Below, in pieces: positions 7,657 through 53,050 of a stretch of 64,000 nucleotides of DNA (position 1 is its first letter; each line of letters begins with the position of its first letter). This DNA comes from an uncultured Saccharothrix sp. (lineage in GTDB: Bacteria > Actinomycetota > Actinomycetes > Mycobacteriales > Pseudonocardiaceae), in NCBI GenBank assembly GCA_965995405.1, contig CBHFOL010000007.1, forward strand, positions 174-64,173. The letters run 5' to 3'. The notes beneath the pieces were generated by a model. The model worked only from the letters and a program-made list of their open reading frames with translations. It was not told the origin of the DNA and searched no databases. The position numbers and the translations under genes are program-made.

Positions 7657-8256
7657 TCATCGACGGCGGACGATCCGGACCCGCCGCCGCGTGCCTTCCC
7701 GCGGTTCCGCCCCGGAGCCGGCCGGGCCGGACACCGTGCGGGTCGCCCCGCCCTCGGTCTCCCACCGGCTCACGTCGTCGGAGAAAGGCTTCCGCGCCTG
7801 CGGCACGCTGATCACGCCGACGCCGTTGCCGGTCAGGAGTTCCTCGACGGTCGTGGTGGCGTTCGAGGTCGACGCCGAGCGCAGCACGGCCCGCGCCGCA
7901 CCGCCCGGCGTCCCCGGCGGAACCACGACCAGCCGGATCCGCGAGTGGTCCGACCTGATCAGGGTCACGGTGTCGGGTTGCGCCGAGTGGAAGCCCTCCA
8001 TGCGCACCACCTGGTCACCGACGGTGAGCCTGCGGCCGGCCCCGGGCCAGGCGTCGAGGTGGTAGGACACCCGCCGGATGGGACCGTAGGACTCCAGTGC
8101 CGCGATCAGCGGGGGAAACTCGGCTCCGGGGTCGGTCGACCGGGGCCACCAGGCACCGTCGACCAGTCCGCCGAGCTCCGCGTCGGGTTTCATCGTCAGC
8201 CGTGGCTCGTGCGGCGTGATCACGTCGGTCGTGGTGCCGATCAGGTCCGAGATCAT
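7657..8256 (-). CDS. DUF5994-family protein
   Basis: PRLTMKP..GLVDGAWWPRSTD, RLVVVPP; exact start uncertain. Confidence 0.75.
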   Translation of the reverse strand: MISDLIGTTTDVITPHEPRLTMKPDAELGGLVDGAWWPRSTDPGAEFPPLIAALESYGPIRRVSYHLDAWPGAGRRLTVGDQVVRMEGFHSAQPDTVTLIRSDHSRIRLVVVPPGTPGGAARAVLRSASTSNATTTVEELLTGNGVGVISVPQARKPFSDDVSRWETEGGATRTVSGPAGSGAEPREGTRRRVRIVRRR

Positions 8257-38671: not shown

Positions 38672-39816
38672 CCCCTCCGCTGTCGCTGCGGAAGCCCCGG
38701 CCGGCACGCGCCCGACGCCCTCCAATGCCAATGCACTGGCCGTCGACACCGCCGAAACGCTCGCGCTGCCGTACCCAGTCGCGCCGGGACGGCTCGCGGC
38801 GCTTCGCCAACTCGCCGGGACACCGGGACACCTGCCACGCGCTTCGACTCCCCGATCAAGCGGGCCCGGCGTCCCGGCCAACGCGCCCGGCGTGCCGGCA
38901 GACGACGCCCGGCGGCCTGGCGACGGTGGCGGTGACCGGGTCGGCCGGGTGTGGCGGGACGACTTCGCCGCGATCCGCTTCCGGCTGCCCGGCGAGTCCA
39001 GTCGGTCGGCCAGGCTGTCGGGCCAGGCGACGAGGTGCTCGCCGTGCCGCTCGCCGACGCCAACCCGGCTGCGTGGGCGAGATGCTCGCCGCGCGGTCCC
39101 GCCGGCGGCCGGTCGGTCGTGTCGCGCGAGGTGTGCGCGGGGGCGGGGAGGTGGGCGCGGAGGCGAACACGTCTGATGTCGACTGGCGCTGGGTCGGTGG
39201 GTCGGTGGGTCGGGTCGTGCACCTCCTCCTGGTGTGCCTGGGCCATGTGTCCCGCCGTGGGGGCCGCTTCCTTCTATTTACGGCAACGCGCCTGGGTACC
39301 GAAAAATGCCCTCGCACTTATGACTGGATCGGGTGATCCTTCGGCGTTCTCCGAGCAGGGTCGACACCAACCAGGCGCCGGGGCTCCCGATCGGCTTTCC
39401 GTCGTCAGACGTAGACATTTAGCCGCCCCCGAGTCTACAAGGTCGCGCATAGACGTGAAAAAGTTCCAAATCGGCAGGGCGGCAATTTCCGCAATCTTAC
39501 GGGCACCGAGGTTCGCTCGAAGATGCCTGCTCAGCACCACCGGACAGCCGGTGAAGAGTCGGGGCGAACGTCAGCCTGACCGTCCGTACAAGTTCCCCGG
39601 TAGGGTGACACTCGACCGGGCACCACAGGCGGCCGTCCGACTCCGGGAAGTTGACCCCACGAATCCGTCGTGTCCGATACGAACGGGTCGTCAAGGCGCA
39701 TATCCCCAGCGACAGACGCCTACGGCCCGGTCGTCGGACACCGTCGCGAATTGCCGATCATGACCTCGCGAAAGTGGAATTTGCCGGGGAGACTTCAAAT
39801 AGGCCAGTCTTCCGCC

Positions 39817-41034
39817 ATGAACCACGCACCACCGGCACTGGGCGACTGGGAGGACCCCGAGGACCCCACGGCACTGCCCGAGCCGCTGCGCGGTCTGCGC
39901 GTCCACCGCCCACGCCCGCTGCCCGTCGACCTCGACCTGCCTACGCGGACCCACCGCAACCTCGCCGAGGCCGAACACGCCCTGGGCAGTCTCAACGAGG
40001 CCGCCGAACGCATCGCCAACCGGCCGATGCTCGTGCTGGGCAGCCAGATCCACGACGCCCGCAGCTCCGCCGCCATGGCGGGCGTGGACTCGGATCTGGT
40101 CGAGGCGCTGATGTTCCATCTTCTCCTCGGCCGCACTGACGGGGACTCGCTGCCCGAACTGATCAGCCGACACCCGGTCGGCCGGTTCATCGTCGCCGCC
40201 GAGTACGGCTCCCGGCAGGTCGCCGCCGGCGTGCGGATCGACGGACACCTGCTCGGCGCGATCAGCGCGCTGATGACCGGGCGGCCCGACCGCGACCTGG
40301 CGGCCGGTCTGCGGTCGTGCCAGGGCTGGCTGGGCGGACGGGACATGGCCGACGCCTACCTGCTGACCGTGCCACCCGGTGACGGCCTCCGCGTGGCCGT
40401 CGCGGACTGGTCCGAGCAGGTCCACGCGGCCGGCCCGCTCTCCCGGCTCGCCCGGATCGCCCTGGCCCACCTGCACCTGGAGCTGCTCCAGCCCTACCCG
40501 GAGGCCAACGGCCACCTCGCGCGGCTGTTCAGCTCCCTGGAGATGGTCCGCACCGGACTGCTCCGCGACCAGATCCTGCCGCTGTCCTACTGGCTCGACA
40601 CCCACCGCCGGCAGTACCACGAGCACATCCAGGCGGTCGTCCACAACGGACCGGTCCACGAGTGGATCGACTTCTTCGCCGAGGGTGTCCGCCGCCAGGC
40701 GCTGGCCCAGCTCGCGCTGATCGACGAGCTCGACGGGTTGCGGCGGCGGCACATCGCGCTGGTGCCCCGGCCGTTGAGCGCGCACCGGGTGGCGGCCGAC
40801 CTGGTGACGACACCGATGCTGACCCACCGCACCATCGTGGAGCGGTACGGGGTCACCACCACAACCGCGATTCAGGTGACCGGGCACCTGATGGGCCTCG
40901 GTCTGCTCTCCGCGCTGGACGACCGGGTCTACGACAAGGTCTTCGTCAGCCGGCCGGTGCTGCGGGCGCTGACCACCGAACGGCCGGTGGAGCAGTCGAA
41001 CCGGGACGGCGAGGTGTTCACGGATCGGACGTGA
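39817..41034 (+). CDS. Fic-family protein (Fic_N + Fic + wHTH) with degenerate catalytic motif, copy 1
   Basis: PRPLP..LAEAEHALGSL Fic_N; QPYPEANGHLAR in place of HPFxDGNGRxxR; C-terminal HTH. Confidence 0.8.
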   Translation: MNHAPPALGDWEDPEDPTALPEPLRGLRVHRPRPLPVDLDLPTRTHRNLAEAEHALGSLNEAAERIANRPMLVLGSQIHDARSSAAMAGVDSDLVEALMFHLLLGRTDGDSLPELISRHPVGRFIVAAEYGSRQVAAGVRIDGHLLGAISALMTGRPDRDLAAGLRSCQGWLGGRDMADAYLLTVPPGDGLRVAVADWSEQVHAAGPLSRLARIALAHLHLELLQPYPEANGHLARLFSSLEMVRTGLLRDQILPLSYWLDTHRRQYHEHIQAVVHNGPVHEWIDFFAEGVRRQALAQLALIDELDGLRRRHIALVPRPLSAHRVAADLVTTPMLTHRTIVERYGVTTTTAIQVTGHLMGLGLLSALDDRVYDKVFVSRPVLRALTTERPVEQSNRDGEVFTDRT

Positions 41035-41045
41035 TCGGTGCCCCG

Positions 41046-42250
41046 TCAGGCGTCGGGTAACGACTCGTCGGGTGCGGTGGCGCGCAGCCGCCGGATCCGG
41101 GCCGCCGCCGGTTCGTCCACGTCGACCAGCAGGCTGAGCGCCTCGTCGAACCGGTCTCGCCCAGTTCCCACAGTGCCCGGCCCAGCTGTTCCAGGACCGA
41201 AGCGTGATCCAGGACCGAAGCGCCGTCCGAGGCCGAAGCGTGGTCGACGGGCTGCCGGTCGTGGGTGACGGCGGCTCGGCGCAACTGTTCCACGGCCGCG
41301 TCCGGCCGGCCCGACGCCAGCAGGGTGACCCCGGTGGCGGCCAGCGCGCGGGCCAGGCCGCGGCGGTCGCCCCGGTCCTGGCAGTCCGCGGACAGTTCCC
41401 GGTAGCAGTCCAACGCGAAGTGCGCGTGCCCCGCCCGCCGGTAGATGTGCGCCCGCCGCCACAACGCGTCGGCGATGCCCTCCGCATCGCCGATGCCGCG
41501 GCGGACCCTGGACTCGCGCACACCGTGCACCTCCGCCGTGGCGAAGTCCCCGGCGTCGGCGAACCAGCGTGCGCTCAACGCGAGCAGGCCGGCCAACGAC
41601 TCGGGCTCGCGGGCCTCGGTCGCGGCCTCCGTGCCGTACAGGGCCACGTCGTGCGCCCAGTCGGTGTCGTCGTGCGGCGGCAGGTGCCAGAGCCGGGCGG
41701 CCAGCGCGCTCGTCAGCCGATGCAGACCCGCCCGGAGGGTGGCGCGGAGCAGGCTCCGTGACAACCGGCGGGACCGGATCGACCAGGCCGCGACCTCGGC
41801 CCGGCCCGCGAACTCGACGGCGGGCAGCACCGGCTCGGAGACCTTGTGGGAGCACCCCGCCACGGCCGCCGCACAGGCCGTGTCGAGTTGGCCTCCGGCT
41901 CCTCCTGGTGCTTGGCCGGCGCAGATCCCCGCCTCGACGGCCGTGTCGAGGGTGGTGAGGAAGTCCTCGCCGAGTCGGCGGACCAGCGCTCGCACCGGCT
42001 CCTGCCGCGGGTCGACCTGCCCGTCCGGCACGGGTTCGAGCGTGTACCGGCCGCCGCCGGTGGAACGCAGCGTCGCCCCGGAGTCGTCCAGCGGCCGGCC
42101 GACGAGACCCGCGAGCACCTCGTCCGCCTGCCGGAGATCGAGGTCTACGGCCACCGCGATGACCCGCGTGGGCAGTTCATCCGCTTCCAGCGCTTGGAAA
42201 GTGTGGATCAGGGCAGCGTGGATCGAAGGTCTGTCCCACTCCCGACTCAC
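41046..42250 (-). pseudogene. NTPase-less STAND-type wHTH/TPR protein, copy 1, frameshifted near 41155
   Basis: N-terminal frame to LGRALWELGET; C-terminal RFDEALSLLVDVDEPAA lies in another frame and matches the paralog at 50734-51864. Confidence 0.65.
41191..41244. repeat. 18-bp imperfect tandem repeat, three copies, in coding frame
   Basis: CCAGGACCGAAGCGTGAT / CCAGGACCGAAGCGCCGT / CCGAGGCCGAAGCGTGGT. Confidence 0.75.
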
Positions 42251-42565
42251 CCGCAACAACCCCTCAGCCGCCCCCGGCCGGCACCGCGACCGCCTCCGCC
42301 CTTGCGTCCTCCTCTCCGCCGCCCCGCCTCCGATCATGCAGCCTCGGCACGGGGCACGCCATCACACCTCGCCGGCAATAGGGCACCGCCGATTCGAGAC
42401 GCGAATCAGTCATCTTTGTCGCCACCCATTTTCGCACGACGTGGACCAGGTATCGGCATATCGCGGCGGCCGAGTATCGCTGTTAGCGGCAGTTGTAACC
42501 CGATCTGGTGAATTGACCCGGGCCCTCGGCACTCGGTGACAACACCGGGCGGAAACCACCCGCGA

Positions 42566-45370
42566 TCACGAACGCGGGCACGGCGGTTGGAAGGGCAGGC
42601 CGGGGAAATAGGCTGCCCAGTCGTCCGAGGTCATCAGCTTGTCCGCCTGTGTGCACAGCCAGTCCGCCGCCTGCGCCGGGTCGATCGAGTCCGGCCAGCC
42701 GCGCGGGATGGACCACAGCATCGCGGTGTTGTCGTCGCTGCCGGTGGCGAGCGTGCCGCCGTCCGGGCCGAACCACACCGAGACCACCGGTCCCAGGTGG
42801 GCCTCCAGCACGGCCAGCTGACGGGCTCCGACCGGCCCCGACACGTCCCACAGCCGCGCGGTGCCGTCCTCGCCGGCCGTGGCGAGACGACCGTCCGGGC
42901 CGAACGCGACCGACCGGACGATCCGGTGGTGGCCCAGCAGCACGGCCAGCTGACCGCCGCTCACCGGGTCCCAGATCCGCGCGGTGCCGTCCTGGCCCGC
43001 GGACGCCAGCCTGGTGCCGCGCGCGTCGAACGCGACCCACGTCGCCCCGCTGCCGTGACCGGTGAGGAAACGCGGCGCGCCGGACCCGGCCAGGTCCCAC
43101 AGCCCCACGGAGTGGTCGAAGCTCGCGGTGGCCAGGGTGCGGCCGTGCGGGGCGAACGCGACCGACACCACCGCGTCGGTGTGCCCGGCCAACGTGGTCG
43201 GCGCACCGGGCGCGCGCGGGTTCGTGACGTCCCACAGCCGGGCGGTGTTGTCGCTGCCCGCGGTCGCCAGGGTGCGGCCGTCCGGGCTGAACGCCACCGC
43301 GTTGACCTCGTCGGTGTGCCCGCTGAGGGTGGCCAGTTCGACGGGGTGCCGCGGGTCGCCGATGTCCCACAGCTTGGCCTGGTGGTCCCAGCCCGCCGTC
43401 GCCACCACCGCTCCGTCCGGCCGGAACACCGCCGCGTTCACGGTGGCGGTGTGCCCGCGGAGCTCGGACAGCTGGACGGCTCGGTGCGGATCGCGCACGT
43501 CCCACAGGCGCGCGGTGCCGTCGTGGCTCGACGTGAGCAGCAGCCGGCCGTCGGGGCTGAGCGACACCGCGTTGACGTGGCCGGTGTGCCCGCGCAGGGT
43601 CGGCAGGTTGGGGAACGGGATCGCGCCGAGCAGGCTCGCGCGGGCCTCGTCGGTCGGCGAGAGGCGGAGGGCGGCGACGCTGAGCTGCGCGGCCAGCGAC
43701 GGGTCCGACCGGCGCAGCGCGGTGGCCTTGCCCGCGACGATCTGCGACAACGCGGTGTTGCGCTGCGAGGCGGCGACGCGTTCCGCCTCGAACGCGTACG
43801 CCGTGGCGGTGACGGCCAGCAGCAACAGCAGGCTGAGCAGCGCCACCAGCTGTTTCAGCCTTCTGCCGTGTCTCCTGGTCTGCGCGTGCTCGGCCTGGGC
43901 GGTGGCCCAGCTGGCGTCCAGGAAGTCGCGTTCCCGCACGGAGAGCGCGTCCGCCCGGTGGGCGGCCCACTCGTGGGCGCGTTCCAGCCGGACGCCCCGG
44001 TACAGCGCGCCCCGGTCGCGGTCCAGCGCCTCCCAGCCGTCGGTCGCCTCGGTCAGCTCGCGGTGCAGCCGCAGTCCCTCGCGGTCCTCGGCCAGCCAGC
44101 CGCGCAGCCTGGGCCACGAGGCGATCATCGCCTCGTGCGCGATCTCCACGCTGTCGTGGTCCAGGGTGATCAGGCGGGCGCGGGCGAACAGGTCGAGCAC
44201 CAGGCCGGTGTCCGGGTCGTCGGCCAGTTCGCCGCGCGCGACCCGCCGTTTGGTGTCCTCGGTGCCGTCGCCGAGCGCGGTCAGCCGCAGCATCAGGTTC
44301 CGCACCAGGTCGCGCTGCCGCTCGGTCAGCCGTTCGAGGACCGATTCGGCGGTCTGCGCGAGCGCGCCCTCGATGCCGCCGGCGACCTGGTAGCCGGTCA
44401 GCGACAGCGTCCGGCCCCGCCGCCTGCGCCACGTCTCCAGCAGCGCGTGCGACAGCAGCGGCAGCACGCCCACCTGGCCCTTGGCCTGCGCGACCAGCTC
44501 GGTGACCAGGGCGGTCTCCACCATCAGGCCGACCCGGGCGGCGGGTGAGGTGATCGCCCGGCGCAGCTCGTCGGGCGTCATCGGCCCGACCGTCACCTGG
44601 CCCTCGCGCACCGCGTCGACCAGCTCGGGGAACGCCGTGCAGTGCGCGTAGAAGTCGGCACGCACCCCCAGCACGACCCGGCACCGGCCCATCCGCGCCG
44701 TGGTGAGCAGCGTGTCGATGAACCGGCACCGCTCCTCGTGGTCACGGCACAGCGTGAAGATCTCCTCGAACTGGTCCACGACGATCGCCAGGTCCCGATC
44801 ATCGGGCGCTTCGTCGCCGGGGACCGCGGAGAGGTGCCGAGCGCACTCCGCCAACGGGTGCGCGCCGGGCGTGAACACCACCACGCGGCCGTCCAGCCGG
44901 GGTATCAGCCCGGCCCGCAGCAGGGACGACTTGCCCACGCCGGAAGCGCCGACCACCACGACCACGCGCTGCCGCTCCAGCCGGGACTCCAGCTCCCGCA
45001 CCAGCCGTTCCCGGCCGAAGAACCGGTCGGCGTCGCCGGGCTGGAACGCGTTGAGCCCGACGTACGGCGGGTCGGACCGGTCGTCGTCGTCCGGTGGGGG
45101 CGGCGCGAGTTCCGCCGCCACTTCGCGCCAGCGCCGCTCCCAGTCCTCCTCCGCGCCGCCGCACGCCCGCACGTAGGCCAGCGTGATCGGCAGGGTCGGC
45201 AGCTTGCGCCCCGCCGCCGCCTGCGACAGCGCCGCCTCCGAGTAGTGGGCCTGCGCGCTGAGCTCCCGGTAGGTCGGCTTGCCCGCCTTCTCCCGCAACA
45301 GCCGCAGATCCCGTGCGAACCGCAGTAACGGGCTGTCTCCGTCGTCAAGTGGACGCTCTCCACGCGGCAT
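42566..45370 (-). CDS. XRE-HTH + nSTAND1 NTPase + TM + WD40 repeat protein
   Basis: LRLLREKAGKPTYREL, PYVGLNAF, FFGRE, GASGVGKSSLLRAGL, VVDQFEEIF, HEAMIASWPRL, about 8 GH..WD repeats. Confidence 0.92.
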   Translation of the reverse strand: MPRGERPLDDGDSPLLRFARDLRLLREKAGKPTYRELSAQAHYSEAALSQAAAGRKLPTLPITLAYVRACGGAEEDWERRWREVAAELAPPPPDDDDRSDPPYVGLNAFQPGDADRFFGRERLVRELESRLERQRVVVVVGASGVGKSSLLRAGLIPRLDGRVVVFTPGAHPLAECARHLSAVPGDEAPDDRDLAIVVDQFEEIFTLCRDHEERCRFIDTLLTTARMGRCRVVLGVRADFYAHCTAFPELVDAVREGQVTVGPMTPDELRRAITSPAARVGLMVETALVTELVAQAKGQVGVLPLLSHALLETWRRRRGRTLSLTGYQVAGGIEGALAQTAESVLERLTERQRDLVRNLMLRLTALGDGTEDTKRRVARGELADDPDTGLVLDLFARARLITLDHDSVEIAHEAMIASWPRLRGWLAEDREGLRLHRELTEATDGWEALDRDRGALYRGVRLERAHEWAAHRADALSVRERDFLDASWATAQAEHAQTRRHGRRLKQLVALLSLLLLLAVTATAYAFEAERVAASQRNTALSQIVAGKATALRRSDPSLAAQLSVAALRLSPTDEARASLLGAIPFPNLPTLRGHTGHVNAVSLSPDGRLLLTSSHDGTARLWDVRDPHRAVQLSELRGHTATVNAAVFRPDGAVVATAGWDHQAKLWDIGDPRHPVELATLSGHTDEVNAVAFSPDGRTLATAGSDNTARLWDVTNPRAPGAPTTLAGHTDAVVSVAFAPHGRTLATASFDHSVGLWDLAGSGAPRFLTGHGSGATWVAFDARGTRLASAGQDGTARIWDPVSGGQLAVLLGHHRIVRSVAFGPDGRLATAGEDGTARLWDVSGPVGARQLAVLEAHLGPVVSVWFGPDGGTLATGSDDNTAMLWSIPRGWPDSIDPAQAADWLCTQADKLMTSDDWAAYFPGLPFQPPCPRS

Positions 45371-45575
45371 TCGCGCCACCTCCCCCGGGAAGATTCTTCA
45401 GCGTTTCTTTCTTCACGTCCACCGGCGGGCCGTGAACAACGCGCGGGCAGTACGGATGAGCTGCGACGCCAAGGGGAACCGGGACGAACGCGAAAACAAT
45501 TGTCGCCCTGTCGTGCAGTCACCGTATCGGGACCCGACCGGACCGGTCGGGGATTTCCAGTCGAGGAGGAATGAG

Positions 45576-46079
45576 ATGGTTGCCGTCCGGCGGATAGCGC
45601 TCATCGTGGTGGACACGGCCCTGCTGCTCACGGCCTGGGCACTCCCGGCAGTCGCGCAGCACGCACCGGCGACCGTGGCGCGGATCGCGGGTGCGGCGAA
45701 CCCGTTGCCGGGCTGTGCGGTCACCTTCGCGCCGGACGTGGGCAGCGACGAGGGGAGGTCGTGTCTGACACCCGCGTCCGGGACCGGCGTCCAGGCGCAG
45801 AGCTGCGCGTTCACCTACTACGAGAACGGCCCGTACGGTTCGCCCGACTGGCGGAACGGCTGGAGCGTGTGCGTGGCCGGCTGGGGCAACTACTACGTGC
45901 CGCTCGCCCTCAACGACAAGGCCAGCTCCTGGGACTCCTGCGCCACCGGCACGTTCTACGCCAACCAGCCCAACACCGATCCCCGTGCGGGCTTCCCGCC
46001 CGACAGCGCCGGGAACTTCCCCCGGGGCGGCGTCGCCAACGACGCGCTGTCCTCGGCCTACGTCAACTACCCGTGCTGA
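45576..46079 (+). CDS. Secreted Cys-containing protein with beta/gamma-crystallin or peptidase-inhibitor-I36-like motifs
   Basis: Signal peptide (AVA-Q), NDKASSW and NDALSS motifs; GAGGAGG upstream. Confidence 0.55.
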   Translation: MVAVRRIALIVVDTALLLTAWALPAVAQHAPATVARIAGAANPLPGCAVTFAPDVGSDEGRSCLTPASGTGVQAQSCAFTYYENGPYGSPDWRNGWSVCVAGWGNYYVPLALNDKASSWDSCATGTFYANQPNTDPRAGFPPDSAGNFPRGGVANDALSSAYVNYPC

Positions 46080-46107
46080 TCACGACGAGCCCGGAGGAGG
46101 ACCGACC

Positions 46108-47628
46108 ATGTTCCGCTTGACCGCGTTCGCCGCGGGAATCGCGTTGTGCGCCATGGCTTTGCCCGCATCGGCCCAGCCGGAGCCCGCCGCCCTGTCCCCG
46201 GCCCGGCCGGTGGCCCTGGTGGCGGGTCAGGGCGTGGGCGACATCAACCACACCAGGGACCGCTTCACCGTGTACGCCACGGATCTCGGGATCATGTGGC
46301 GCGACAGCCAGGGGCGGGTAGCGACCGCGTTCGGCGACACCTACGGCGCGGACTGGGTCGGCAACGGCGCGGGCGGCCCCGCCGACTGGCGCTTCAACAC
46401 CCTGGCCCACTCCACCGACCCGGACCTGACCGACGGCATGACCATCGACTCGATGGTCACCGACCGGCCCGGCCACGCCAAGGAGATCCTGCCGCGCGAC
46501 CCGTCCGTGCCCGAGGAGACCGAGATCCCGACGGCGGGGATCAGCGCCGGTTCGCGGGACTACCTGCACTACATGTCGGTGCGCCGGTGGGGTCCCGCCG
46601 AAGGCCACTGGCAGACCAACTACGCGGGCCTCGCCTACTCCGACGACGGCGGCCGGACCTGGGTCAAACCGGCTTCCGCGCGCTGGGCGAACGTCGGCGG
46701 CACGGGCCGGTTCCAGGTGGGCGCGTTCGCGAAGAAGGACGGGTACGTGTACCTCTTCGGCACGCCGAACGGCCGGTTCGGCAACGCCCAGGTCGCCCGG
46801 GTCCCCGAGTCGCGGGTGCTGGACGTGCCGGCCTACGAGTACTGGACCGCCGGCGGCTGGCGGGCGGGCCCGGCGGACGACGCGGTGCCGGTGCTGTCCG
46901 GCCCGGTCGGCGAGCTTTCGGTGCTGTACAACAACAACCTGGGCCGCTGGGTCGCGCTGCACCTGGACCTGGACCGGCGAGCCATCGTGCTGCGCACCGC
47001 GCCCGCGCCGAACGGGCCGTGGACCGGCGGTCAGATCGTGGCGCACAACGACGACTACCCCGGGCTCTACGGGTCGTACCTGCACCCGGACAGCGCCGAC
47101 GGGCCGGACCTGTACTTCGCGATGTCCCAGTGGGCGCCGTACCACGTGCGGCTGATGCGACTCCGGCTCGCCGACCTCGCGTTGAGCGACAACCTGGTGC
47201 AGGACGGCGGTTTCGAGGACCGACCGGCGGGCGCGGGACCGGCTCCGTGGCGGATCAACGGCCGGGGCGGCGTGGACTACGGCGGGCAGTCGCACTCGGG
47301 GACGAACAACGGGTGGGTCCGGCACGATTCCGGGTGGAACGACCTGTACCAGCACATCGTCGTGCAGCCGGGTGGGCGGTACCGGCTCACCGGGTGGCTG
47401 CGCAGCTCGGACACGAACACGGCCGGGTACTTCGGCGTCCGGAAGCCGTTCGGGCAGGGTGTGGTGGCGGAACAGCCGTTCGGCCACCTCGCCGGGTACA
47501 CGCGGCTGAGTGTCGACTTCACGGCGGGCGCCGACCCGGACCTCGAAGTGTTCGCGGGCGGGTGGTCGCCGGCCGGCCGGGACTTCTGGATCCAGCTGGA
47601 CGACGTGGTGCTGAGCCGGATCGGCTGA
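46108..47628 (+). CDS. Secreted DUF4185 protein (GH183 endo-D-arabinanase-like) with C-terminal CBM-like domain
   Basis: Signal peptide, ATDLG, FGDT, IPTAG, YPGLYGSY, MSQWAPY; DGGFE..W CBM4/9-like tail. Confidence 0.8.
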   Translation: MFRLTAFAAGIALCAMALPASAQPEPAALSPARPVALVAGQGVGDINHTRDRFTVYATDLGIMWRDSQGRVATAFGDTYGADWVGNGAGGPADWRFNTLAHSTDPDLTDGMTIDSMVTDRPGHAKEILPRDPSVPEETEIPTAGISAGSRDYLHYMSVRRWGPAEGHWQTNYAGLAYSDDGGRTWVKPASARWANVGGTGRFQVGAFAKKDGYVYLFGTPNGRFGNAQVARVPESRVLDVPAYEYWTAGGWRAGPADDAVPVLSGPVGELSVLYNNNLGRWVALHLDLDRRAIVLRTAPAPNGPWTGGQIVAHNDDYPGLYGSYLHPDSADGPDLYFAMSQWAPYHVRLMRLRLADLALSDNLVQDGGFEDRPAGAGPAPWRINGRGGVDYGGQSHSGTNNGWVRHDSGWNDLYQHIVVQPGGRYRLTGWLRSSDTNTAGYFGVRKPFGQGVVAEQPFGHLAGYTRLSVDFTAGADPDLEVFAGGWSPAGRDFWIQLDDVVLSRIG

Positions 47629-47711
47629 GCGGGGTCGTCGTACCTGCTCGGCGTCTTCCCCGGCGACCGCGTCCCGTGATGAGGTCAGGGCTCACTGCGG
47701 GGGAGGCGATC

Positions 47712-48884
47712 ATGGCTGAGACCACGGATGTGGTCGTGATCGGTGCGGGTGTGGCGGGCCTGACCGTGGCGAACCTGTTGCAGCGGGCCGGGATCGGCTG
47801 TGTGGTGCTGGAACGGCAGAGTCGGGCGCACGTGGAGCAGCGGCAGCGGGCCGGGGTGCTCGACTTCGCCGCCGAGCAGGTCTACGTGCGGGCGGGGTTC
47901 GAGGAGCGGCTGTTGGCCGGGGTGCCCCGGTCCGGCGTGATCGAGTTCCGGATCGACGGCGTGGGGCGGATGTTCGACGCCGCGCGGCACACCGACGGGC
48001 GGATCGGGCGGCTGTTACCGCAGCAGTTGTTGGTGCGGCGGCTCATCGCCGCGTTCCTGGACGGCGGTGGAGACCTGCGGTTCGAGGCGGCGGACGTCGT
48101 GCCGCACGGTCTCCCCGACCGGCCGTACGTCACCTACCGCGACCCGTCGGGTGTCGAGTACCGGGTCGACGGTGAGTACGTGGCCGGTTGCGACGGTTTC
48201 CACGGGGTCAGCCGCACCGCCGTGCCGCCGGACGCCGTCACCACCCACCGGTTCTCCGACGACGTCGGCTGGTTCACCGTGCTGGCCGACTCGCCGCCGC
48301 CGGCGCATCCGCTGATCGCGTTGAGCCGCCACGGGTTCGCCGCGCACTTCGGGCGTGGGCCGCAGGCGAGCCGGTTCTACCTCCAGTGCCCGGCGGCCGA
48401 CGATCCGCAGACGTGGTCGGACGACCGGGTGTGGCGGCAGTTGCGGTTGCGGTTGGCCGATGACGGGCTGCCCGGCGGTCCGATCGTGGAGAAGGCCGTG
48501 ATCGACGTGCGCAGCTTCGTGGTCGACCCCATGTCCTACGGCAGGCTGTACCTCGTCGGGGACGCGGCGCACATCGTCCCGCCGATGGGCGGCAAGGGGA
48601 TGAACCTCGCGATCGCCGACGCCGACGTGCTGGCCGGGGCGCTGTCCGCCGCCGTTCGCGACGGGGACGACCGGCTGTTGCGCGAGTACTCCCCCACCTG
48701 CCTGCGCCGGGTGTGGAACGACCAGGAGTTCTCCCGCTGGATGTCCGAGATGGTGTTCCACGGCGCGGACCCGACCACCGCCGGCCCGTTCCGATGGCAA
48801 CTCGCCCGGTCGCGGCTCGACCGGCTGTTCACGTCGGACTCGGCGGCGAAGGCGTTCGCCGAGCTGATGGCCGGGACGGCGTGA
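47712..48884 (+). CDS. 4-hydroxybenzoate 3-monooxygenase (PobA)-like flavoprotein hydroxylase
   Basis: GAGVAG, QRAGVL, GCDGFHGVSR, GDAAHIVPPMGGKGMNLA. Confidence 0.85.
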   Translation: MAETTDVVVIGAGVAGLTVANLLQRAGIGCVVLERQSRAHVEQRQRAGVLDFAAEQVYVRAGFEERLLAGVPRSGVIEFRIDGVGRMFDAARHTDGRIGRLLPQQLLVRRLIAAFLDGGGDLRFEAADVVPHGLPDRPYVTYRDPSGVEYRVDGEYVAGCDGFHGVSRTAVPPDAVTTHRFSDDVGWFTVLADSPPPAHPLIALSRHGFAAHFGRGPQASRFYLQCPAADDPQTWSDDRVWRQLRLRLADDGLPGGPIVEKAVIDVRSFVVDPMSYGRLYLVGDAAHIVPPMGGKGMNLAIADADVLAGALSAAVRDGDDRLLREYSPTCLRRVWNDQEFSRWMSEMVFHGADPTTAGPFRWQLARSRLDRLFTSDSAAKAFAELMAGTA

Positions 48885-49280
48885 CGCCGAGGTTGCCTCG
48901 GCGAGGTTGATCAGCCGATGCCGGCCCGGGGTTCGAGCGCGCCGCCGAAGTTCCTTCGCGGCGGCACGGTGGTACGGCCGCAGCTGTGGACGCCTCGATT
49001 TCACCCCTTCGTGCGACAAACCCGCCGAACCGCGGCCCCTGCTGCCCCCGTTCGGGAGGAATAGCCCAGGTCCGGGTGCTCCCGACGAATCAAAACAGCC
49101 CGATGAACAGTGCGCGAGAGTCGGCCGCAATAGGGCGGCCAACGCCGACTGCACCGGCTTCTGCACATCGAAATCGCTGGTCAGGCAGCTCATCACGATG
49201 CCCGGGTGTGATCAGATTTGATCTTGAAATGATCCAGACCGTGTTTGCGGGATTCCATGGCTGTCAGCCAGAGTTCCCAT

Positions 49281-50480
49281 ATGAGCAAGACCTCCGTGCC
49301 TCCTGGTGACGACGGCCTGCCGACGCACTACCCGTCGGTGCCGTCCGATGAGCCGACCCTCCCCGCCGGAACGCAGGGCGAGCTGTGCTTGGCGGAAAAT
49401 GCGGCAGGGGCACTTCAGCAGGCGCTCCAGGTTGTTCCCGACGTCCAGGCGTACTTGACGTGCCTCAAGCTGCGAGACGTGCTGAGGTCCGCGCGGCTGA
49501 CCGGGCTCACCGCCATGCCCACGGAAACGTGGGTGGCGGCGCTGAGGCTGTCGCCCCACCACCCCGAAGCGGAGTCCCAGCCCGATCCGGAGACCGAGGC
49601 ACGGATACGCGGCCACCTCGTCGGCCGGTTCATCCGGGGATCGGGACTGCTGGACCGGAAGATCGCCAAGGGTGGGCACAACGGCATCGAACTGCTGGGC
49701 GAAGTCAGCGCCGTGCTCACCGATCAACCGGTGCGGTCGTGGGAGGAGGGCCTCCGGCAGACGGAGGGTTTCCTCACCGCCGGGCCGGGCGGCGCACCCT
49801 ACGTGCGGACCGCGCCTCCGGGCGAGCCGCTGGTGCGGGCGGTGTTGGAGTGGGATCGGTGGGTCGCACGGGCCGGTGTCGGGCCACGCCTGGCCAAGAT
49901 CGCGGTGGCGCACCTGCTGCTGGAGTTGCTGCAACCGTACCCCCGGGCCAACGGGCACCTGGCGAGATTGTTCTCCAGCGGCGAGATGGTGCGTCAAGGC
50001 GTTGTACGGCAGCCGGTGTTGTCACTGGCACCGTGGCTGGACGACCACGCCGACGAGTACCGCACACGGATCCGGGCCGTCGTCGAAGGCGGGCCGTGGT
50101 GGGAGTGGATCGAGTTCTTCGCCCGTGGTGTGGGCGAACAGGCCAGGCGCAACCTCGCGCTGATCGGCAGGCTGGACGACCTGCGCACTGAACTGACCGA
50201 GCGCGTCACGGGGTCGCGCGCGTTGCGGGAAGTCCTGGCCGCGCTGCCCACGTCGCCGGTCACCAGCATCCAGGTGCTGGCCTTCCAGCACGGACTCAAG
50301 CCCAAGACAGCCGCCCAGTTCACCCGCCGACTGGTGGCCGAGCAAGTGCTGCGGGTGGTCGCCGAACACCCGATCAAGGTGTTCGTGTGCGAGGAGGCGA
50401 TGGACGTGTTGACCTTCGACGCCACCGTACCCCGAACCGATCTACCGGTGCTGTCGGCACCTGACACGAACGATCGATGA
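49281..50480 (+). CDS. Fic-family protein with degenerate catalytic motif, copy 2
   Basis: LAENAAGAL Fic_N, QPYPRANGHLAR, C-terminal HTH; start uncertain (49245 or 49281). Confidence 0.78.
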   Translation: MSKTSVPPGDDGLPTHYPSVPSDEPTLPAGTQGELCLAENAAGALQQALQVVPDVQAYLTCLKLRDVLRSARLTGLTAMPTETWVAALRLSPHHPEAESQPDPETEARIRGHLVGRFIRGSGLLDRKIAKGGHNGIELLGEVSAVLTDQPVRSWEEGLRQTEGFLTAGPGGAPYVRTAPPGEPLVRAVLEWDRWVARAGVGPRLAKIAVAHLLLELLQPYPRANGHLARLFSSGEMVRQGVVRQPVLSLAPWLDDHADEYRTRIRAVVEGGPWWEWIEFFARGVGEQARRNLALIGRLDDLRTELTERVTGSRALREVLAALPTSPVTSIQVLAFQHGLKPKTAAQFTRRLVAEQVLRVVAEHPIKVFVCEEAMDVLTFDATVPRTDLPVLSAPDTNDR

Positions 50481-50505
50481 AAACCCCTCTCCAGGAAGAT
50501 TCAAC

Positions 50506-50748
50506 GTGACCGAGTCCGAGCCTCCCCGTTCCCCTCGTCCTGCTTCGGTTCCGCCGCCCCGGCGGAACGCCCCACGCCTACGTCGCCCCTCCGGTGGCTA
50601 CCGCTACCGGCGCGCCTCCCGACCGCGCCCGACCGGACCATGGCCGCGTTTGGTGGGTTCGACCGTGTTCAAAGGGGTTTCGATCGTGATCGGCGCACTG
50701 CACCTGGTTCTCGACCACCTGATCCCGTGGCTGTTACCCCGGGGCTGA
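50506..50748 (+). CDS. Small hypothetical Pro/Arg-rich protein with C-terminal hydrophobic helix
   Basis: AGGAAG upstream; KGVSIVIGALHLVLDHLIPWLL. Confidence 0.4.
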   Translation: MTESEPPRSPRPASVPPPRRNAPRLRRPSGGYRYRRASRPRPTGPWPRLVGSTVFKGVSIVIGALHLVLDHLIPWLLPRG

Positions 50749-51864
50749 GAAGCGGGGTGCCGGTGCCGGATAGCGGTCGGGCACCGCAGGCGGCAGCGGC
50801 CGGTCGTGGTCGTGGGCCAGCAGGCGACGGACGTGGTCGGCGGCATCGTCGTCCACGTCCACGAGCAGGGCCAAGGCGTCGCTGAACCGGCGCTTGGCCG
50901 CGCCGATCGCGCCGGAAGCCCACAGGGCGCGTCCGGACCACTCGAAGATCAGGGCCTGCTCGACCGGGGGGAAGTCCGTGAGCGCGCGAACGGCGTGCTC
51001 CGCGCGGCGCGCCCAGTCCACGGCCAGATCCGCCCGGTCGTAGGACAGCAGGGCCGCCGCGGTCCCCGCGCGGACCCGGGCCAGGGCGGCGCGGTCCTCA
51101 TCGTTGCCGTACAACGACTCCAGCCGCTCGTAGCAGCGCAGTTCGAGATCACCGCGGCCACGCCGGCGGAACATGTCCGCCCGCCACCACAACAACCACG
51201 CCGCCTCTGTCGTCCGACCCGCCCGTCGCCACAGGTCCCACTCCCGGAGCGCGTACTCCTCCGCCGAGGCGAGGTCTCCGCGGCCTTCGAACCACACCCA
51301 CGCCGAACGCAGCAGTCCCGCCATCGTCTCAGGAGCCCGCCCCGTCACCGCCGCGTGGACGCCCACCTCGGTCAGCGCCCGGACGAACCCGGAGTCGAAT
51401 GCCGCCGCGTCCGCCGCGTCCCACAGCAGTGTGGCCAAGGACGAGGCTGATGACGACCGGCCCACCGCGTTCGCCGCGCCGGCAACGCCCAGCACGCAGT
51501 CCCGGTGGTCATGCACCCAACGACGGGCGGCACCCTCGTCCCCGGCCGGATCCGCGCCGGATCCGCGCAGCGCCACCGAGGCATCCGCCAGGAGGCGCAG
51601 CGTTCCTTCGGCGATCCGCTCGACAACCTCGACCACACGCCCCGACCCGATGTCGACCGTCCGGGACGTCCCGCCGGAGACCAGTCGGCCGTCCGGTCTT
51701 CGCCGTACCGCGAACCGATCGCCGAGGGCCAGTCCGTCCACTACCGCCACCTCGACCCCGGCGGCCAGTGCCACCAGCCACGCGGGCAACGCGTCCACCG
51801 CGACAACCTCGAAGAGCACCGGTAATACGTCGATCACGGCGGACTCGTCCCGCGCCTGGCTCAC
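50734..51864 (-). CDS. NTPase-less STAND-type wHTH/TPR protein, copy 2
   Basis: AARRWVHDHR (cf. AQAWLDAER in AfsR), TPR-like helices, RFSDALALLVDVD; no P-loop. Confidence 0.65.
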   Translation of the reverse strand: MSQARDESAVIDVLPVLFEVVAVDALPAWLVALAAGVEVAVVDGLALGDRFAVRRRPDGRLVSGGTSRTVDIGSGRVVEVVERIAEGTLRLLADASVALRGSGADPAGDEGAARRWVHDHRDCVLGVAGAANAVGRSSSASSLATLLWDAADAAAFDSGFVRALTEVGVHAAVTGRAPETMAGLLRSAWVWFEGRGDLASAEEYALREWDLWRRAGRTTEAAWLLWWRADMFRRRGRGDLELRCYERLESLYGNDEDRAALARVRAGTAAALLSYDRADLAVDWARRAEHAVRALTDFPPVEQALIFEWSGRALWASGAIGAAKRRFSDALALLVDVDDDAADHVRRLLAHDHDRPLPPAVPDRYPAPAPRFSAPG

Positions 51865-52303
51865 CGGCAACAACTCCTCGGCCGCTCCTGCAACTCCACA
51901 CCCGGCCGCCGTCCACGGCCGCCCCGACTTCGCCGCTACTCGACGCAACCTCTGATCATCCCGTGAACACGTGCCGAAAGGATCCCCACTCGACCCTTCT
52001 CCGTAGTCCCATCCTCCACCCCGCTCCGCGCGACTCCGTCGGCGGCCAGCGGGAACACACCCCTAGTCATTCCACATGATGATCATCAAAGTCAACCGAA
52101 CGAGTGAATACGTCGAATGACGGGGTGACGCCGAACGCAACAGCCCGCGCGACCGGGACGACCATCGACCGTGACCGCACACGACCCGTGTCATCGGGGC
52201 CGCCCTGTCCTGAGGAGGAACCCGAGGCGTGACGTCAGGCGGCACATCGGCGTCACGCCTGTTCCTGTGCCGACGGGGCCGGCAAGGCTGAGGGGAGCTG
52301 CCG

Positions 52304-53050
52304 ATGTGCGCCGAAATACGCCTGCTGGGAACGCTCGATGTGACGGGGCCGCACGGGCCGGTGTCCTGGACCGGGGCACGGCGGAAGGCCGTGTTCGCCA
52401 TGTTCGCCCTGCGTCCCGGGCGGCTGGTGTCCCGGTCGTCGCTGATCGACGGGCTGTGGGCCGACGCGGTGCCGCCTACCGCGCTGAAGACGCTCCAAGG
52501 GCATGTCGCCCAGGTGCGCAAGGCACTGTCCGCCGCCGGGCTCGTCGGGGTGCTGGTCACCCGTGACCCCGGCTACCTGCTCCGGATCGACACCGCGCTC
52601 GTGGACATCCACCGCTTCGAGGAGCACGTCCGGGCCGGGCGGCACGCGTTGGAGCACGGCGACCCCGCCACCGCGATCGACCGGCTCGAAGCGGGGCTCG
52701 CGCTCTGGCGCGGCGATCCGCTGGCCGACTGCCCGGTCACCGGCTGGGCCGACGCCGAGCTCACCCGGCTGCGGGAAACCCGGGCCCTGGCGGAGGAACG
52801 GCTGGTCACCGCGCTGTGCCTGCTCGACCGGCACGCCGAGGCGATCGGCGAACTGGAGCGCTTGGTGGCCCGCTACCCGCTCCGGGAACGGCTGTGGGAA
52901 CTGCTCATGACCGCCCAGCACCGCTCCGGCCGGCCCGCCGACGCGTTGCGCACCTACCGACGCGTCCGCGCCGTCCTGGTGGACGGGTTCGGGCTGGAAC
53001 CGGGTCTCGGGCTGCGCCGGCTGGAGGCGGCGGTGCTGGACGGACGGTGA
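52304..53050 (+). CDS. SARP-family regulator (wHTH + BTAD only)
   Basis: IRLLGTLDV, LQGHVAQVRK, GYLLRID, LRERLWELLM. Confidence 0.92.
   Translation: MCAEIRLLGTLDVTGPHGPVSWTGARRKAVFAMFALRPGRLVSRSSLIDGLWADAVPPTALKTLQGHVAQVRKALSAAGLVGVLVTRDPGYLLRIDTALVDIHRFEEHVRAGRHALEHGDPATAIDRLEAGLALWRGDPLADCPVTGWADAELTRLRETRALAEERLVTALCLLDRHAEAIGELERLVARYPLRERLWELLMTAQHRSGRPADALRTYRRVRAVLVDGFGLEPGLGLRRLEAAVLDGR

Follow-up and report, generated by a model that had tools for sequence, protein, structure and literature searches.

Fic enzymes have been studied as toxins, effectors and regulators, and dead Fic domains, such as AvrB and the BID-type domains, are also known, with roles that are mostly unclear. Here we describe two genes for degenerate Fic proteins, FicA and FicB, together with their convergent partner genes, tprA and tprB, in a stretch of 64,000 nucleotides from an uncultured Saccharothrix sp. 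of the family Pseudonocardiaceae (assembly GCA_965995405.1, contig CBHFOL010000007.1, positions 174 to 64,173 of the forward strand), which is called the window in what follows. The closest described family is that of SoFic, which AMPylates EF-Tu and binds its own promoter (bioRxiv 10.64898/2026.07.09.737422); Sofic is also a toxin that acts by abortive infection and is paired with AS1, a small antitoxin (PMC12249575). Two other systems invite comparison. CccR of Yersinia pseudotuberculosis is a Fic protein with a winged helix-turn-helix (wHTH) that represses its own promoter (PMC9755527), and metazoan FICD (HYPE), an AMPylase and deAMPylase, holds its target by a fused tetratricopeptide repeat (TPR) domain (PMC8373988). 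Conserved degenerate Fic clades have been discussed by Khater and Mohanty (PMC4454073), and neither dead Fic domains nor dead Fic-wHTH proteins of the SoFic class form a new category. What appears to be new here is the degenerate actinobacterial clade with its obligate TPR partner, for which no description was found; in the literature we found no characterised degenerate actinobacterial Fic protein with a TPR partner.

FicA and FicB share the three-part architecture of SoFic from Shewanella oneidensis (SO_4266; 3eqx, 3zcn and 3zec), with Fic_N, Fic and a C-terminal winged helix in a single chain of about 360–410 residues, and the position of the inhibitory helix is also the same. They differ from it in that the catalytic histidine, the first arginine of the motif and the inhibitory glutamate are replaced, and in a clade-specific C-terminal tail. 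The PADLOC SoFic profile matched both proteins over its full length (positions 9–359 of 361; E = 9e-43 for FicA and 8e-37 for FicB), and the best PDB sequence matches were of the SoFic class (9vjc, 7cb8, 3eqx and 3zec), with alignments that reach the C-terminal domain. An AlphaFold2 (AF2) model of FicA, with a pLDDT of 86 and a pTM of 0.86, is disordered only in its last 18 residues. Foldseek matched this model with a probability of 1.00 to many Fic structures, the closest being M. marinum Fic (7cb8) and SoFic (3zec, 3eqx and 3zcn), with TM-scores of 0.73–0.81 over about 370 columns. CccR (7xux) was among the fold matches at rank 8–9 with a TM-score of about 0.5, weaker than SoFic, and unlike the proteins described here it is catalytically active (it AMPylates FtsZ), is secreted by a type VI secretion system and has no TPR partner (PMC9755527). 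Family profiles gave much less. Pfam Fic (PF02661, gathering threshold 24 bits) matched neither protein at E ≤ 0.1, the Fic_N match of FicA stayed below its threshold (19.6 bits against 26.7), the NCBIfam SoFic equivalog NF046030 scored 69.1 and 72.2 bits against a cut-off of 550, and neither Pfam nor NCBIfam held an above-threshold family for FicA, FicB or tprB.

The two open reading frames with QPYP codons at 40489 and 49932 exist as the original prediction described them. Their active-site loops are indeed nearly identical, with 24 identities in a window of 27 residues against 38% across 386 aligned positions, and this is the best window of the whole FicA–FicB alignment (binomial P of about 6e-8; when corrected for how many windows there are, P is about 2.5e-5). 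The further claim that the rest of the proteins aligns poorly did not hold, as BLASTP aligned about 385 residues at 37–38% identity with E = 4e-66. Aligned with canonical relatives and mapped onto HPFx(D/E)GNGRxxR, both loops have glutamine for the histidine, alanine for a glycine and histidine for the first arginine, while the second arginine and the Glu, Asn and Gly of the motif are kept. Neither QPYPEANGHLAR nor QPYPRANGHLAR thus has the catalytic histidine of the AMPylating-Fic motif HxFx(D/E)GN(G/K)RxxR. The helix of the class II autoinhibition motif is present in both proteins and its inhibitory glutamate is gone (SAAMAG in FicA and SARLTG in FicB). These three substitutions, the missing glutamate at the aligned position and the retained C-terminal wHTH, which was seen both in the model and in the SoFic alignments, had all been called correctly. 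Judged by sequence, FicA and FicB are pseudo-Fic proteins that keep the Fic fold and have lost the catalytic histidine, the first arginine and the inhibitory glutamate. As a matter of annotation, the PADLOC SoFic model matches these apparently dead proteins at E = 1e-37 to 1e-43 and the PGAP label for proteins of this type is “Fic family protein”; automated annotation of actinomycete genomes may therefore miscount them as active defence systems of the SoFic type.

When 1.84 billion cluster representatives were searched with a profile, 7803 of them matched, and the best 150 of these were examined for their loops, which were degenerate in about 50 clusters and canonical in about 100. The motif residues H, G, N, G, R, G and R were invariant in 98 canonical clusters, and the inhibitory glutamate was present in 94 of 95. 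Across 46 degenerate clusters the same motif positions and the glutamate had entropies of 1.6–2.8 bits. The place of the catalytic histidine was taken by Ala in 12 of these clusters, Gln in 10 and Ser in 8, and that of the inhibitory glutamate mostly by Asp, Ser or Ala; His stood for the first arginine in 30, Ala for the glycine that follows it in 32, and the second arginine was kept in 31. Positions on the side of the pocket that are invariant in the canonical enzymes are relaxed in the degenerate ones (E120, N123, P184, H218, Q220 and E222 in FicA numbering).

In a maximum-likelihood (ML) tree all degenerate proteins form a single clade (SH-aLRT 100, stem 0.75) that is nested among canonical SoFic-like enzymes, and the motifs place the predicted loss of AMP-transfer chemistry once, at the base of this clade. 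Since the degenerate proteins are monophyletic, the substitutions shared by FicA and FicB were inherited from one ancestor, and the shared loop is therefore no evidence of repeated selection for it. The original prediction had read identical substitutions in distant paralogs as a sign of selection for a new role, an argument that this tree does not support; the tree also rules out a parallel or convergent origin of the substitutions. Every QP[YF]PxANGH protein, including FicA and FicB, which diverged from each other long ago, belongs to one subclade of 16 sampled sequences (support 100), which we call the QP subclade. Random decay of the motif among homologues had been named as the outcome that would speak against a selected loop, and the picture here is mixed: 12 of the 16 keep the loop, and it has decayed further in four lineages (DPFEGTGRYLPV, PPFPDA with a four-residue deletion, QPFEVPDGHVAR and RPFPEANGHVAR) and throughout the sister clade of 31 clusters, where loops are highly variable and often one residue shorter (for example, APFA-GADHLAR, SPVA-HADHLSR and APLE-HADELVY). 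An Amycolatopsis branch of the family still has the histidine (HPFAGGNGYVAR), and no loop residue is invariant across the degenerate clade.

Because the loop decays freely in sister lineages, its exact form is not the feature that is conserved throughout the clade. Clade-wide conservation is seen instead in the scaffold and its winged helix, in a C-terminal tail that is new to the clade, and in the TPR partner gene. The QPYPxANGH loop is the least-decayed form of the old phosphate-binding loop. Within the QP subclade it may still hold a nucleotide or phosphate, but the clade at large has no need of the loop. The extension that follows the winged helix has a median length of 28 residues in degenerate members against 17 in canonical ones, and it carries a recurring proline-rich, acidic and aromatic motif, such as PTPPDHDGDAF. 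Conservation that is peculiar to the degenerate clade was also found at FicA positions 21, 28, 165, 201, 255 and 288.

A convergent TPR homologue lies downstream of the pseudo-Fic gene at both copies in the window, at 6 of 6 public loci and at 17 of 19 further loci in the family, that is, at 25 of 27 loci overall. Every intact copy that was examined has one, and the two loci that lack it are those in which the pseudo-Fic gene carries an in-frame TGA. The other neighbours differ completely among the six public loci while the arrangement with the partner stays the same, and the partner is present both in the His-retaining Amycolatopsis branch and in branches with fully decayed loops. Three canonical relatives were inspected and none had a convergent TPR partner. 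Pairwise distances among pseudo-Fic proteins and among their partners are correlated over 25 pairs (Mantel r = 0.84), a value reached in none of 2000 permutations. In addition, the two genes are fused in several cases. The TPR precedes the pseudo-Fic in P0099, P0062 and P0135 and in two genes of the window's own genome, one on contig C236 and one on C402; the order is reversed in P0154, where the pseudo-Fic is followed by the last, C-terminal repeats of the partner. The fusions of the window's own genome (C236:3166-5894 and C402:2170-4296) have more degenerate loops, GPFQDGNDHIAR and QPLRRGNPAVAR, behind their N-terminal TPR region, and on C236 a separate homologue of the TPR partner lies directly upstream on the same strand. 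A different fusion is found in the public protein P0041 (757 residues), in which a QP-type pseudo-Fic (QPFPTANGQVAR) stands behind an XRE-HTH and an ImmA/IrrE-type M78 peptidase domain. ImmA/IrrE-type regulators usually carry a sensor domain in the place where P0041 has its pseudo-Fic.

TPR_12 matched 7 of 8 partners tested. tprB was itself assigned by homology, being 35% identical to tprA over 178 residues and 35–42% identical to the partners at other loci. The partner of a Saccharothrix orthologue, 55% identical to tprA, was modelled with a pLDDT of 94.6. The model begins with a winged helix, which is followed by a linker helix and then by a TPR superhelix, with 12 paired helices at residues 128–371. 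Among solved structures it comes closest in fold to the TPRs by which LGN/Pins and kinesin light chain (KLC) clamp peptides, with the STAND-TPR structure 6mfv ranking lower. The partners share a C-terminal helix and tail, ALALLVDVDDxAADRVRxLLATPxxxPLP. With the wHTH-TPR halves of STAND NTPases (6mfv; AfsR, 8k60) the partner has in common the order of winged helix and TPR, and there are weak profile and fold matches. It differs from them in its best fold matches, which are the eukaryotic TPRs, and in having no NTPase domain: there was no match to NB-ARC, NACHT or AAA_16, and the model holds no NTPase. The pair also differs from the FicTA and Sofic-AS1 systems, in which the inhibitory helix often comes from the antitoxin. 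Instead of a small, co-oriented, adjacent antitoxin such as the downstream AS1 of E. coli Sofic (PMC12249575), the neighbour of the pseudo-Fic gene is a convergent gene for a wHTH-TPR protein of 289–460 residues. FICD likewise combines Fic with TPR, and the partner echoes, as two genes, this metazoan design; in the pseudo-Fic clade the TPR protein is encoded next door or fused, whereas FICD is active, with a canonical motif, an inhibitory glutamate and an N-terminal TPR in the same chain, and its Fic core is only remotely similar to FicA (TM-score of about 0.45).

In tprA itself the reading frame appears to be shifted about 35 codons before the end (41018-41220, minus strand). After ...LGRALWELGETG the protein runs into an unrelated Arg/Pro-rich tail, and the C-terminus typical of the family, RFDEALSLLVDVDEPAAARIRRLRATAPDESLPDA followed by the stop codon, sits in another frame and ends at 41046. 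A short out-of-frame deletion relative to the homologues is the likely cause, and it could be either real decay or an error of the draft assembly, which consists of 573 contigs.

The close homologues come from Saccharothrix, Actinosynnema and Amycolatopsis, all of them Pseudonocardiaceae, and the degenerate clade was seen here solely in that family. Members at E ≤ 1e-90 were found in 28 of 251 sampled genomes of the family and in 9 of 60 genera; within the genus to which the window belongs, 7 of 10 genomes have one. These counts come from genome samples at E-value thresholds where weak degenerate and canonical members overlap. A search of 400 other Actinomycetes genomes at E ≤ 1e-70 returned only three canonical proteins, at a threshold that weaker degenerate members could escape. 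Carrier genomes have several paralogues each, and about 10% of the stronger matches in the family sample contain an in-frame stop. A canonical SoFic-like gene of at least 150 bits is found in 4 of the 28 carrier genomes and is lacking in 24. In the genome of the window, four copies are of the QP type (FicA, FicB and one each on contigs C429 and C143), and a single canonical copy, with HPFLDGNGRVGR, lies on contig C51. The paralogues on C429 (175-1371) and C143 (564-1778) lie at contig ends with the side of the TPR partner cut off, which suggests that the assembly breaks in or near partner genes at these places.

The dN/dS analysis that the original prediction had called for was carried out, and the pseudo-Fic genes are under purifying selection. 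Pairwise ML estimates among FicA, its C429 paralogue and Saccharothrix orthologues are 0.06–0.14, and the Nei–Gojobori method (NG86) gave 0.27–0.49; all of these values are rough owing to high dS. The family is thus accessory and multi-copy yet constrained. Such a clade amounts to a natural experiment, with one dated loss of catalysis within the SoFic radiation, a graded decay of the loop, a constrained scaffold and an obligate, co-evolving TPR partner, and it could reveal what use is made of the Fic scaffold once the chemistry is gone.

Because the catalytic site has been lost and a repeat-protein partner is co-inherited, the pseudo-Fics most likely act by binding rather than by catalysis. 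Without the general base, the clade would be left with docking, DNA binding and dimerisation. The reading that we favour, with roughly even confidence, is that pseudo-Fic and partner together form a sensor or regulator that works without catalysis and descends from a toxin-type enzyme. In this pair the dead Fic domain would act as a docking or ligand-sensing scaffold, and the winged helices would contact DNA, by analogy with those of active SoFic and CccR at their own promoters. The TPR partner, with its superhelix of the LGN/kinesin-light-chain type, would clamp an extended peptide and thereby switch the complex. The best candidate for this peptide is the C-terminal tail that marks the pseudo-Fic clade, or else a signal protein. 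A more far-reaching version, which we put forward as a speculation with rather long chances, is an undescribed non-enzymatic sensing module built by disarming the SoFic abortive-infection toxin, which in Pseudonocardiaceae would have expanded to between four and six copies in each genome. Its dead Fic domain would have retained from its ancestors the capacity to dock a conserved cellular or phage protein (or, in the QP subclade, a nucleotide), the TPR partner would read its state through the tail, and both winged helices would give a transcriptional or immune response. If this is true, bacteria would have in it a counterpart to signalling by pseudokinases or decoys.

Several points weigh against a non-catalytic sensor or regulator. 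The strong conservation of the loop within the QP subclade could mean that a ligand or a chemistry has been retained. Pseudo-Fic and partner genes are convergent and so have no shared promoter, and the apparent frameshift in tprA means that module A may be decaying, or that the draft assembly is wrong. A dyad upstream of FicA is weak, with 5-bp arms, and not significant, and none is significant upstream of the C429 paralogue. Patchy carriage, the presence of paralogues and the share of about 10% with stops are more what one expects of an accessory or conflict system than of a regulator with a housekeeping role. Lastly, the physical complex, the DNA binding and the placing of the tail in the TPR groove are all steps that we infer.

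The first of these points leads to an alternative in which the pocket of the QP[YF]PxANGH subclade is still functional, either as a sensor of a nucleotide or phospho-ligand or as a site of altered chemistry, through the histidine that replaces the first arginine or through the kept Glu, Asn and second Arg. We regard this as possible but improbable. In paralogues with 38% identity overall, no other stretch of 27 residues is as well conserved as the loop, 12 of the 16 sequences of the subclade keep it, and the motif retains its Glu, Asn, Gly and second Arg; the absence of the inhibitory glutamate would leave the pocket open, and no residue stands in for the first arginine more often in the degenerate clade than histidine (30 of 46). 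The position of the pseudo-Fic in P0041, where a sensor domain would be expected, also fits a ligand-binding role. The change of Gly to Ala at the same motif position is also present in the motifs of active Doc and AnkX. However, the general base is missing, the clade keeps partner and scaffold without any invariant loop residue, and the other positions on the pocket side are relaxed as listed above. Moreover, the four QP-subclade lineages that lost the loop, one of them with the four-residue deletion, kept intact reading frames and partners.

Another reading takes the pair for a descendant of the SoFic abortive-infection toxin that now serves in conflict or immunity. The pair would sense an invader protein and either signal to an effector elsewhere or switch on genes through its winged helices. 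The closest family is an anti-phage system (PADLOC SoFic; PMC12249575), but the PADLOC match shows only homology, the matched enzyme has an activity that these proteins have lost, and the catalytic residues on which the published mechanism depends are absent from them. Carriage that is accessory and patchy, in multiple copies of which some are pseudogenes, is in keeping with such a module, as are the varied genomic contexts, with nSTAND1-WD40, AAA_16/nSTAND5, HicB and XRE genes among the neighbours; STAND regulators are, however, very abundant in these genomes and their adjacency may be due to chance. The likeness of the partner to the wHTH-TPR half of STAND sensors, with 6mfv among the fold matches, would fit as well. 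Domain searches found no recognisable effector domain in either the pseudo-Fic or the partner, and on balance we consider an immune role unlikely. Functionless, decaying relics of a toxin-type SoFic gene would account for the wide variation of the loop, the in-frame stops in several homologues, the apparently frameshifted tprA and the patchy carriage. They would not account for intact reading frames in at least nine genera, a dN/dS well below 1, confident predicted folds of pseudo-Fic and partner, the new clade-specific conserved positions and tail motif, or the co-divergence of the partner, and we hold this explanation to be very unlikely. Finally, a decoy role was part of the original prediction, and one form of it is a poison subunit that heterodimerises with active SoFic in the same cell or titrates its inhibitors. 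SoFic activity does need homodimerisation (PMC12249575; bioRxiv 10.64898/2026.07.09.737422) and the genome of the window does hold the canonical copy on C51, but the scarcity of canonical SoFic-like genes among carriers (4 of 28) has weakened the idea to the point that we largely reject it. The conserved neighbour, moreover, is a TPR protein and not an active Fic, and the chance that a decoy is the answer seems to us slight in the extreme.

The features of the two modules are collected in Table 1. The window has about 72% GC, the base composition of high-GC actinomycete DNA, and the GC content by codon position is typical of real genes in both FicA and FicB, with values at third positions (GC3) of 0.92 and 0.84. 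The frame of FicA is open from 39670; the ATG at 39817 fits the N-termini of orthologues and is preceded by a conserved block. The frame of FicB is open from a TTG at 49245, and the public gene call P0016 begins at 49281. The whole FicB–tprB pair (49281-51948) has a GC3 of 0.84–0.85 against 0.92–0.95 for FicA and the surrounding genes, which hints at a different history or expression level of module B.

Table 1. Coordinates of the FicA–tprA and FicB–tprB modules and associated features in the window.
Feature	Position	Strand	Basis
Conserved block just upstream of the FicA start, TGGAATTTG...TAGGCCAGTC, likely promoter or operator region	39775..39808	+	Shared with C429, L008 and L010; dyad statistics
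FicA, SoFic-class pseudo-Fic of 405 residues (Fic_N, Fic core, winged helix, disordered tail)	39817..41034	+	Open reading frame, PADLOC SoFic, AF2, Foldseek, GC3
FicA SAAMAG at the inhibitory (S/T)xxxE(G/N) position, Glu to Ala	40066..40083	+	Aligned to canonical STSALEG/LSSRIEG
FicA degenerate active-site segment LELLQPYPEANGHLARLFSSLEMVRTG	40477..40557	+	QPYP codons from 40489; alignments to relatives
FicA C-terminal winged helix-turn-helix, residues ~320-386	40774..40974	+	Model secondary structure; SoFic C-terminal domain alignment; MarR_2 match at the same place in P0041
Disordered tail at the C-terminus of FicA; clade-specific motif RPVEQSNRDGEVF, with PxPPxxDxxxF as the consensus of the family	40978..41031	+	pLDDT ~31; present in the degenerate clade, absent from canonical relatives
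tprA, convergent winged-helix and TPR partner of FicA, apparently frameshifted near the 3' end	41018..42337	-	TPR_12 30.4 bits against a cutoff of 30.1; 55-59% identity to the L008 and L010 partners; frames
XRE-HTH, nSTAND1 NTPase, WD40 beta-propeller protein of 937 residues	42566..45379	-	Pfam nSTAND1 E=5e-127, WD40; directly upstream of tprA on the same strand; module membership not established
FicB, SoFic-class pseudo-Fic of 399 residues, 38% identical to FicA	49281..50480	+	Open reading frame, BLASTP, public gene call P0016, PADLOC SoFic, GC3
FicB SARLTG at the inhibitory-motif position, Glu to Thr	49488..49505	+	Alignment
FicB degenerate active-site segment LELLQPYPRANGHLARLFSSGEMVRQG	49920..50000	+	QPYP codons from 49932; alignments
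tprB, intact convergent gene for the TPR partner of FicB; the conserved C-terminal tail is ALALLVDVDDDAADHVRRLL...PLP	50734..51948	-	Homology to tprA and other-locus partners; alignment

The block upstream of FicA, in the form TGGAATTTG...TAGGTCAGTC, is common to FicA, its C429 paralogue and two other Saccharothrix loci, L008 and L010, and in two orthologues it contains a perfect 8-1-8 palindrome. Significant dyads that end 17–20 bp before the start codon were found in 4 of 10 orthologous promoters (L008, L010, L011 and L012). Their sequences are ATGTGGAG-A-CTCCACAT, which is found at the two Saccharothrix loci, TCGAGCA-N12-TGCTCGA and GGAGAACG-N13-CGTTCTCC. The inverted repeat of L008 and L010 lies about 17–33 bp upstream of the start at 8001, and the repeats are lineage-specific. 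Together, the lineage-specific inverted repeats and the shared block are candidate operators or promoters. Scans for sigma-70 promoters and intrinsic terminators around both pairs gave nothing useful, such scans being uninformative for high-GC actinomycetes.

Among the other neighbours, genes of the AAA_16/nSTAND5 type adjoin the module in L008 and L010. FicB–tprB is flanked by an FAD_binding_3 monooxygenase and SARP/BTAD regulators (47700-48884 and 52292-53050). Monooxygenase and SARP/BTAD genes of the same types flank the module in Saccharothrix australiensis (L010, 10877-17203), where the pseudo-Fic gene is from a different branch than FicB, and the flanking genes that the two loci have in common may be there by chance or may be a remnant of synteny.

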